From IMG/VR virus record IMGVR_UViG_2667527998_000010: 15,861 nucleotides of DNA, one strand, 5' to 3'. A program made the position numbers. This stretch comes from a virus (Duplodnaviria > Heunggongvirae > Uroviricota > Caudoviricetes). Each line of letters begins with the position of its first letter. Positions within the stretch are counted from its first letter, which is position 1. Below, in pieces: positions 9,001 to 12,000 of the stretch.

Positions 9001-12000
9001 CATAAAAAAAGTCCTGGGGTTAAGTAAGGAACTCCAGGACGCGGCAAACACTCAACCGTTTTTCATAAGGAAATCAGTAATCGCACCGATCGTTTTCCCG
9101 CCTGGTAATGAATATTGGCGAGCACATTAACAGGCGGGAAAGTGGCCCCAGCGTCCTGGCACCACGGGCGAGAATAATCATGATTCAGTTCGGGTAAAAT
9201 ATGCCGATCCGCTCAGTGAACAACGTGGAACAACCACGAACAAATAATTTACAAAAAATAACAAAAAGCCGGATTGCTCCGGCTGCGTGGTGTGGTTCTG
9301 ATATTCCTACTCTGCTAATTTGCTCAGCCCCATGTCTGCGTAAGTGCGATTTACTGCATTTCTCAGGTCTGCGTAGTTCTCCGTTGGCGGCTCCGGTGTG
9401 CCCTTGCTGCTCTGTTTTACCAGCGGGTCGCCCACCAGCTGCCCGTAAGCTGCAATTTGTGCTGTCATATTGCCACCTCAGTGAAGCGATCCGGCATTGT
9501 TCTTTTTCATCTCTTCCATCATTTTTTCAGTGAGCATTACGCACTGAAACCCCATGTTTTTGATGTCTACGGGTTTCATGCCTTTGTCAGTGGATATCAC
9601 AGGCAGAATATCCTGATACACATCGCGGTCAGGGTAACTAAGCACACAAAGCTCCCATGATGCCACGGGTGAGGATCCTTCGTCTGTTTCAACCCACCAG
9701 CCTGGTGTAGCTGCGCTTATTTGCAGAATCGTGATCCGTCCGTTGTGCTTGTAAAATTTTTCACCAAATTTTGGTTCGCTCATGATTCCACCTCTCCGGT
9801 TTTAACGTTGATTGTTGTTACCTGTTCCGCTTCGGCAATCTCCCGCTCTGTCAGCGTGGCAAAATTTGCCGCCGTCGTGGTCATGAATGCGCTTATCAGT
9901 TCGGGATGTGCTTTCGCGTATCCTTCCCCCGCGTGGCGGTCTATCGTTCTGATTGCCACCTTTAAAGCGTGCTCTGTCATGTCTAACGCGCGATATTTCG
10001 GTTCTGTTCTGTCTCTGCGTTTTTTGAATGATTTATTAAATTTCCCTGAAGTGTGCATATTTATTTTTACCCCCTCGTTTAAAAAGTTTTGAGTTGTGCC
10101 TCCCCTTGTCTACCTTATCTACCTTAGTGGCCCTCATGCCAGTAATGGCGCTGCTTTCAGCGGGGTAGAGTGCTTTTATCCACTATCTACCCCGTGTCTA
10201 CCTCCCTGTCTGATTCAGGTAAAATCAGGTAGAGAGGGTAGATAGTGGGTAGACAGTAAAAAAAGGCTATCTACCTAACTTAATGCACTGAATTAAATGT
10301 ATTTTTCTTTACTCAGGTAGACAGGGTAGACAGCAATTACAAAAAATTATAAAAACGCGTCGCACTCGTCTGTTGTTATTGCGTTAGTCTGCGTTACTCC
10401 CTTAACTTTCCGCGTAATATATTCATGTCCGTAAACTTTCGCGGCTGGCTTCATAGCCTTGCCAAAGTCATTTACGTTTAGCGGTTTGCTCCTGCCTGCG
10501 TACGCCATAAACGCCAGATAGACGCGGTAAAGGCTGTTTCTGGTCGTGTACTTCACTGAATCGCCACCGCCGCCCATCATCAGGCCGCGTGCTTCCTCCA
10601 GAAAATTCAGGAACTGGCAAAACTCAATAACCGGATCCGTCTGTTGCTTTATTGCCAGAGCTTCATCACCGTCACGCTGTTCCAGTAGTAAAGCCCGTGC
10701 TTTCTCAGAGTCGGTAAAGTTCGCCAGCAATCGGCGGATAATGACAGGGATTTCAGCCGCAATCTTTTCCGGTAGCTCCCTGTCTTTTTCGGCCTCACTA
10801 ACGATATTGTCGAAACGGAAAATCACGCGACGACGTGCCACACCTCCGGCCCGTTCGGTGAATATCATCGGGTTATTGTTGGTCGCCAGCACCACCGCCC
10901 TGATTACAGCCGTGAAACGCTTTTCGTATTTCGGGTTAATTTCCACGGGGTCACCGCCCGTGATTTTCTTGATGCCCGTTCCTTCGCCTGTATATTTCGG
11001 CTGGTCAGCCAGGACGATAAGACGACTCCCGACAACCTGCGCACGTCCACCAGCATCATCAAGCGATGTCATTTCAGCGCTTACCGTGTTCTGTTTCCCT
11101 GCCAGAAGGCTGGCTATGTGTGTGAATGTACTTTTACCGCTCCCGCCGTCTCCGGTGGCCTCAATAAACATCTGCCAGTCGTACCGGTTCGCCATAATCA
11201 TGTACAGCGCGGCACATATACGCATCATCTTGCGCTGGTCTTTTCCGGCTGCGTGCTCAAGCCATTTATGAAAGTTTAGCGCGTTATCGCGGATGTTCTC
11301 CCCTGGTGCTGGTGGCGTGTACTCAATGCCGTTGTGCGTGGTGATCCAGTTCTCCGGCGTGTGCGGGGAAAATTCCCCCGTTTTCAGGTCAAGCGCACCA
11401 TTGGCGAACGGCAGCAAATCGCCGGACGGCTCGCCCATTGGTTCGGCAATAACTTTTAACGCTTCCACGGCGTTATTGATTACGCGCTTGCTGAAAGTGG
11501 CCCTGTGCTCTGAATAGATCACCACCATTTCGCGGCTAAGTTCCATTGTGCTGACCGGACACCATACCCCGCCGCGCCATACGTGAACGATTTCACTTTC
11601 CTGATGCACACAAACGCCATCAAAGCGCTCGGCAAGCAGCTGCGCGCGCTCACTGTCTGCCATTTGTGCCAGTTGCGTATTTTTCTGCTCCGGCATGGTA
11701 AGCCCTGCGGCAATATTTTCACGCTCAGCATTCAGATAGCGCCGCCAGTTTTCACACTTCTGGACGTGCATTCCTTCGGGGTAAAAATTTGCGTCCTGAA
11801 TATCTGCCGCCGCCAGCTTCTGACCAATCTTTTTGGTCTCCACCAAATCCAGTTCTCCGGCCTGGTACAGCCTTACGCGTTTTTTTCCATCCGGAACAAT
11901 TTTCAGTGCATCAAGTTCGGCAAGCTGATTTGGCCCAAGCCACACAGGCGGCACATTATCGCCGGATGCGGGGCCATCCTGCTCCTGCCATTGTTTCGCG

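Follow-up and report, generated by a model that had tools for sequence, protein, structure and literature searches.

The 15,861-nucleotide stretch analysed here (the window; IMG/VR record IMGVR_UViG_2667527998_000010, Caudoviricetes) carries a Shigella phage-inducible chromosomal island (PICI). A 288-bp noncoding gap directly 3' of its initiator gene pri-rep holds an array of eleven short repeats (iterons) that is very probably the replication origin of the island's Pri-Rep replicon. This origin is already known, as the same allele has been described and functionally tested in the Escherichia coli island EcCICFT073. An earlier sequence-only reading of the window had proposed a likely origin at this place, and the proposal is supported by the orthology of the gap to the EcCICFT073 origin (ori), by the published plasmid data on that ori and by the co-variation of the iterons with the DNA-binding domain of the initiator.

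The gap measures exactly 288 bp, as first read, and runs from the stop codon of the initiator open reading frame (ORF 10347-12095, - strand) to the ATG of ORF 9780-10058 (- strand), with the array beginning 13 bp past the initiator stop. All eleven copies share an invariant GGTAGA core within the consensus R-GGTAGA-Y-A-G. Inspection by eye had found eleven 9-bp copies in both orientations with tandem pairs, and recounting bore this out: six copies lie on the + strand (starting at 10164, 10228, 10237, 10248, 10316 and 10325) and five on the - strand (10106-10114, 10115-10123, 10183-10191, 10194-10202 and 10267-10275), with tandem pairs at 9-bp spacing at 10106/10115, 10228/10237 and 10316/10325. 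Nine copies differ from GGTAGACAG at no more than one position; the remaining two, GGTAGATAA (10115-10123) and GGTAGAGTG (10164-10172), carry two mismatches each with the core intact.

Counts across the window set this cluster apart. GGTAGA occurs 13 times on both strands of the 15.9 kb, 11 of them at 10109-10330, and in 200 dinucleotide-preserving shuffles the count averaged 3.46 and never rose to 13; the two remaining occurrences, at 488 and 15107, are isolated, so that the window contains a single cluster. The word GGTAGANAG was found seven times, always at 10183-10333 (0.17 expected), and GGTAGACAG with at most one mismatch 11 times, nine of them in the array region (1.66 expected). Scattering of the motif through the host genome had been named as an outcome that would speak against an origin; a count over 61.7 kb of island DNA and flanking E. 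coli sequence, short of a whole genome, gave 0.18 GGTAGA per kb and no GGTAGANAG.

Read along the primase-sense strand (> standing for TCTACC, spacings in brackets), the layout is >[3]>[40]<[16]>[5]>[3]>[25]<[5]<[16]>[40]<[3]<, a dyad symmetry in which two inverted five-iteron modules lie on either side of a central copy, iteron 10228-10236. In E. coli PICIs the ori is described as the region immediately 3' of pri-rep, in which two iteron sets lie on either side of an AT-rich stretch (PMC6092414, Fillol-Salom 2018); here the sets 10316-10333 and 10228-10275 flank a spacer of 78% AT in just this way. The 30-mers of this spacer, 10276-10315, rank at the 99.6-99.8th percentile of the least stable duplexes window-wide. 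The AT-rich spacers of the sequence-only reading thus stood for 10276-10315, for 10257-10266 (80% AT) and for 10334-10346 (85% AT), but not for the distal spacer 10124-10163, which has only 42% AT. Within the latter, the core CCAGTAATGGCGC (10140-10152) is more conserved than the iteron tails, also in variants at 72-79% identity, and consensus scans of 10124-10163 returned neither a promoter nor a terminator. Searching Rfam at permissive thresholds produced only eukaryotic microRNA-hairpin models far under their gathering scores, attributable to the dyad symmetry at 10148-10288, and these were rejected.

The functional evidence comes from a close E. coli copy. Of 5426 complete E. coli genomes, 564 contain the gap; every copy is chromosomal, and none lies under an annotated feature. 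Its match in strain CFT073 covers the full gap length at 95.1% identity and lies between phoQ and roxA, at a locus carrying the capsid and decoration genes called c1499 and c1500 in the literature, which identifies it as EcCICFT073. Fourteen substitutions separate the two gaps, two of them in iteron tails, while 11 of 11 cores and all spacings are kept; the Pri-Rep proteins share 90.2% identity, and across the final 110 columns of their alignment only one position differs (D/E). In the published experiment, a plasmid with pri and ori was maintained at the restrictive temperature of 44 °C, and plasmids lacking either ori or pri did significantly worse (PMC6092414). For this 95%-identical copy, dependence of plasmid maintenance on pri-rep and the gap is therefore established. 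The published primers show which DNA was removed: rep-3c, at the end of the ori-deleted construct, maps exactly to 9284-9304 of the CFT073 locus (L002), equivalent to 10343-10363 of the window, and rep-2c, at the end of the ori construct, maps to about 8977-8997 of L002 or about 10036-10056 of the window, the printed primer showing one apparent indel. The deleted segment corresponds to about 10036-10342, and since the two primers bracket the gap, the published ori is this gap. In addition, the homology arm of the pri deletion primer EcoCFT073-pri-4c covers the iteron pair 10316-10333 and contains the tandem GGTAGACAGGGTAGACAG. The islands around the two origins differ, EcCICFT073 being limited to a capsid homologue plus a decoration protein, whereas the window island encodes capsid, protease, portal, HNH, TerS and TerL.

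The initiator has the parts expected of an origin-binding helicase. Its 582 residues match the Pfam domains D5_N, DUF5906 (a superfamily 3 (SF3) P-loop domain) and Pox_D5, as well as TIGR01613 ('phage/plasmid primase, P4 family') and phrog_864, and residues 176-430 align with the DNA primase chain of PDB 7OLA (E = 6.5e-16). The C-terminal domain is demonstrably homologous to the winged-helix domain with which P4 alpha binds its origin (residues 486-577 against PDB 1KA8, E = 7.3e-07), and it is the presumed reader of the iterons. What had been called a primase gene encodes an SF3 helicase of the P4 family that carries a winged-helix domain for origin binding; the name may not suit its N-terminal part, which looks Toprim-like and lacks the catalytic residues. 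A fold search predicted a Toprim-like fold there with high confidence, while the N-terminal 150 residues gave no significant match to Pfam or PDB, as single sequence or as profile. The family conserves A25-G26-x-D28 where the catalytic E-G would be expected and shows neither a conserved DxD nor a zinc finger, so that the 'primase' part looks like a degenerate Toprim domain that is probably inactive. Some E. coli proteins (P0043, P0052 and P0056) carry the same N-terminal domain joined to helicases of the AAA_25/RepA type.

Array and initiator travel together. Scanning one genome per species yielded only three loci (the Shigella source, Serratia and Morganella), too few for statistics, and the figures on relatives are from scans of IMG/VR. 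With its existence and position, the conservation of the array is established: 80 of 80 close IMG/VR relatives have 6-11 cores within 330 nucleotides of the initiator stop codon. Among 62 distinct gaps of close relatives, mean column conservation was 0.92 in the 6-bp core, 0.79 in the spacers and 0.54 in the 3-nucleotide tail, and E. coli variants with gaps of 72-78% identity have 9-11 cores at equivalent positions, their tails changed from YAG to RGG. Over 63 distinct loci (52-99% protein identity), the density of cognate iterons was 30 per kb in the 330 nucleotides after the gene and 0.088 per kb elsewhere, a difference of about 340-fold. Placement next to the initiator gene, claimed at the outset as usual for satellites and PICIs, therefore recurs across these relatives, and the array accompanies the primase across islands with differing packaging modules. 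A more distant relative departs from it: in Pasteurella phage Pmp8 (L093, primase 32% identical), the stretch past the primase gene lacks an iteron array and contains just one TGTTCAC and a hairpin, beyond which lies the remnant of an integrase, so the rule that the origin follows the initiator does not cover all relatives.

The sequence of the iterons changes together with the winged-helix domain, while their layout stays constant. Among relatives the repeat switches between GGTAGA, TGTTCA and GTATAC; the winged-helix class SLYRVY goes with GGTAGA and the class YLYHAY with TGTTCA. In Serratia aquatilis, Morganella morganii and the Klebsiella element 'vB_KppS-Ant' (41-53% protein identity), the layout is kept with the iteron TGTTCAC(C/T). 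Two IMG/VR initiators, L172 and L169, both about 52-53% identical to that of the window, differ from each other in 11 of 587 residues, T559N and V562M included, and between their loci the iterons at homologous positions change from the GGTGTTCAT type to the GGTATACAC type. Judged by sequence comparison, this pair is a natural specificity switch, and generic winged-helix topology would place T559N and V562M in the wing. Of the arguments drawn from sequence, this established co-variation speaks most strongly for the winged-helix domain as the presumed reader of the repeats.

Two further IMG/VR loci, L153 and L155 (primase about 70% identical), present their modules in permuted order within 420 nucleotides after the stop, the distal type coming first and the AT-rich module lying 86-87 nucleotides further along; the GC-rich spacer forms a hairpin with a 13-bp stem in L153 and a less perfect one in L155. 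This permutation suggests that the iteron modules may be separable units.

Comparison with satellite P4 rests on the NC_001609 annotation, PDB 1KA8 and remarks in PMC6092414, as a literature search for alpha, crr and iterons gave nothing usable. P4 alpha is 39.6% identical to the initiator over residues 141-578, the helicase core and the C-terminal winged-helix domain being common to both. In P4, as here, an iteron cluster lies directly 3' of the initiator gene. The type-1 repeats of P4 ori, >[2]>[35]<[14]>[3]>[2]>, have the same arrangement as the six primase-proximal iterons of the window, giving a shared module >>[35-40, AT-rich]<[14-16]>>>, and an AT-rich spacer of 35-40 bp occupies the equivalent place in P4 ori and in the Serratia, Morganella and Klebsiella relatives. 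The iteron itself, CTGTCTACC, differs from the P4 type-1 iteron CTGTTCACC at two positions. The P4 octamer TGTTCACC was not found here, where the iteron reads TGTCTACC (GGTAGACA; 6 of 8 positions matching), and the Serratia, Morganella and Klebsiella relatives have TGTTCAC(C). The two systems differ in organization and in the initiator: P4 requires both ori and crr, which are 4.5 kb apart (clusters 4291-4590 and 9310-9413), whereas the window has one compact array with two inverted modules, and P4 alpha combines a zinc finger with a Toprim primase of the active type (EGYATA, DRD), whereas the initiator here has a short Toprim-like domain without these.

Staphylococcus aureus pathogenicity islands (SaPIs) offer the mechanistic parallel. 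They carry 6-12 short iterons immediately downstream of rep, around an AT-rich region and in opposite orientations on each side, and their Rep is a self-loading SF3 helicase whose C-terminal winged-helix domain binds the iterons (PMC9371898). The window resembles them in having iterons after the initiator gene around an AT-rich region and an SF3 helicase with a winged-helix domain, its core matching PDB 7OLA. Unlike SaPIs, it belongs to another host clade and has other iteron sequences, and directly opposite its tandem pair, beyond the AT-rich spacer, stands a single inverted iteron; SaPI primases, in turn, are separate or fused full primases. By analogy with SaPI Rep, the initiator would bind, melt and self-load.

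In the scheme that we favour, induction would lead to synthesis of the 582-residue initiator from the gene just upstream of the array, its C-terminal winged-helix domain would bind the GGTAGA iterons, and hexamers of the SF3 helicase core would assemble on the two inverted modules. Melting would then occur in the 78% AT, 40-bp spacer 10276-10315, which has the tandem pair on one side and the single inverted iteron on the other; we take this spacer as the melting site because it is AT-rich, unstable and in the same place as the spacer of P4 ori and of the relatives. The helicase would load itself and host polymerase III would copy the excised circle, with priming probably by host DnaG, given that the N-terminal domain lacks catalytic residues. 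In this scheme we infer that the initiator binds the DNA directly and that melting occurs in 10276-10315, as well as bidirectionality and the primer source. DnaA-dependent iteron plasmid origins of the pSC101, R6K and RK2 type have conserved DnaA boxes beside their iterons, a feature missing here: searches of the gap for DnaA boxes, IHF sites and GATC found no strict DnaA box and no IHF consensus. The only DnaA-like match, TTATCCAC at 10176-10183 (8 of 9), overlaps an iteron, is present in CFT073 and is missing from the variants of 72-78% identity, so that it is probably fortuitous.

A more specific picture can be offered tentatively, as a possibility to which we give rather less than even weight. 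The array may be a compact, dyad-symmetric fusion of two P4-ori-like modules, >>[~40]<[16]>>, one with an AT-rich spacer and the other with a conserved one that is GC-rich or forms a hairpin. The modules would be permutable between lineages (L153 and L155), specificity would be set by very few wing residues (T559N/V562M with the concerted iteron switch), and the 'primase' domain would be a dead Toprim, so that, unlike P4, these satellites would have to borrow priming from the host.

Several observations weigh against assigning origin function to the array. The published ori deletion lowered colony numbers without abolishing them (PMC6092414), and the plasmid test concerns the 95%-identical EcCICFT073 copy, not the Shigella copy. 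Our literature search found no binding, footprint, melting or start-site data for this initiator family. The distal spacer is GC-rich and conserved, and the nonsense mutation in the capsid gene means that the island may be decaying. A candidate rule for the tails, pairing YAG mostly with ND.G and RGG mostly with AE.S where the presumed recognition helix begins, was dropped on account of the exception L118.

Other functions have been considered for the array. It could be a crr-like cis enhancer and not the start site, the positional homologue of P4 crr, with replication starting at a separate ori elsewhere in the island: the P4 cluster immediately downstream of alpha is crr (4291-4590), its annotated ori (9086-9809) lies 4.5 kb off, and we found no mapped start site in the literature for any E. 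coli PICI. We nevertheless regard this as very improbable, since the only two other GGTAGA in the window are unclustered, the published minimal fragment that was maintained had only pri-rep and this gap, and the proximal module has the layout of P4 ori, not of crr, with the AT-rich spacer enclosed. A similarly low probability attaches to the repeats serving mainly as an operator or promoter for the downstream small ORF and the packaging module, replication being secondary or absent. The array does separate two modules within a single long transcription unit that runs leftward, and the distal end of the gap (10059-10105) is conserved up to and including the ribosome-binding region GAGGGGG of ORF 9780-10058; a dual role, in which the initiator also represses read-through, is possible. 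However, the gap has no terminator and, by scan, no sigma-70-like promoter on its coding (-) strand; over 9700-10700, we counted no terminators and one promoter-like match on the + strand, at chance level. With no terminator in the gap, upstream transcription probably runs through the origin. Moreover, the array co-varies with the origin-binding domain of the helicase and not with the downstream genes, which differ between islands, and the published deletion affects plasmid maintenance.

Packaging and chance are less probable still. Because the island encodes TerS, TerL and HNH, and terminase sites often have repeated elements, the array might be the cos or pac site of its small terminase and HNH system. 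This is hardly credible: the array recurs at 93-99% identity in PICIs that package their DNA in unrelated ways, EcCICFT073 without any terminase genes among them; in this island it lies more than 5 kb from terS; and the iteron type follows the helicase C-terminal domain. As for a chance or decaying cluster without function, some decay of the island is indeed visible in the capsid nonsense codon, but no shuffle reached the observed counts, the core is conserved above the spacers in the 62 distinct relatives, and the layout persists at 41-53% protein identity in other genera; the conservation data effectively refute this explanation, and its probability is negligible.

Assigning the array to replication implies that a capsid-forming Shigella island carries a standard, characterized EcCICFT073-type replicon and that 10059-10346 can be labelled ori. 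The comparative by-products, namely the module layout common with P4 ori, the iteron-specificity switches tied to few wing residues and the probably inactive Toprim domain, could guide work on origin recognition by P4-family initiators; they leave the picture of PICI biology unchanged.

Table 1. Parts of the putative origin and of the adjoining genes, in window coordinates
Feature	Position	Strand	Remarks
First gene past the putative origin, 92 residues, phrog_1231	9780-10058	-	Function unassigned
Whole iteron array	10106-10333		11 copies R-GGTAGA-Y-A-G
Distal tandem iteron pair	10106-10123	-	TTGTCTACC and TTATCTACC on + strand
Distal 40-bp spacer, 58% GC	10124-10163		Short hairpin inside
Single distal-module iteron	10164-10172	+	GGTAGAGTG; core intact, tail divergent
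Two distal-module iterons, 11 bp apart	10183-10202	-	CTATCTACC and GTGTCTACC on + strand
Three same-orientation iterons, start-to-start 9 and 11 bp	10228-10256	+	GGTAGAGAG, GGTAGATAG, GGTAGACAG
Single inverted iteron closing the AT-rich spacer	10267-10275	-	CTATCTACC on + strand
40-bp AT-rich spacer, 78% AT	10276-10315		Candidate DNA-unwinding element
Tandem iteron pair by the initiator stop codon	10316-10333	+	GGTAGACAG twice; left boundary of AT-rich spacer
Initiator gene Pri-Rep, 582 residues	10347-12095	-	Annotated 'DNA primase family protein'; Pfam, TIGR01613, phrog_864
Winged-helix origin-binding domain, residues 486-577	10365-10640	-	PDB 1KA8 match
D5_N and SF3 P-loop helicase core, residues 151-415	10851-11645	-	Pfam; PDB 7OLA
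Toprim-like N-terminal domain (predicted), residues 1-135	11691-12095	-	No catalytic E / DxD signature, no zinc finger

The window has phoQ at one end and the integrase gene at the other (int, 14632-15861), and the capsid, prohead protease, portal, HNH, TerS and TerL genes between them mark the island as a capsid-forming PICI. All island genes are on the - strand, and the insertion adjoins phoQ, the same site as in EcCICFT073. Shigella flexneri SFBU1023 matches the primase gene and the gap at 100%, and the closest annotated relative has int, a helix-turn-helix regulator, icd-like genes, DUF4222 and the primase in the same order. These features agree with the surroundings typical of a PICI, namely an integrase, a regulator of the alpA type, transcription in one direction and an attB that prophages do not use. 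One early-region gene, ORF 13265-14011 (- strand, 248 residues), had no match in Pfam or PHROG; relatives have icd-like genes hereabouts.

The major capsid gene (7846-9051, - strand) is interrupted by an in-frame TGA at 8176-8178, where the E. coli RM6927 orthologue has tryptophan (KNAV-W-VVNSTT), so that ORFs 8176-9051 and 7846-8175 are one pseudogene and the island probably builds no capsids of its own. Masked sequence, in the form of runs of N, occurs in the packaging module at 4546-4607, 5045-5191, 5455-5514 and 5738-5789; neither the ORFs that span it, such as 4642-5310, nor the dip in GC content around 5000-5250 is reliable.

When the window is set beside the CFT073 (L002) and RM6927 (L174) loci, the replication allele and the attachment site attB (phoQ-roxA) are common to all. 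The comparison shows a classical PICI and capsid-forming PICIs swapping packaging modules around a constant backbone of int and replication genes. Past the small ORF that follows the gap, L002 and L174 have SSB and PerC genes, and the window instead has ORF 9478-9783 (phrog_27268).

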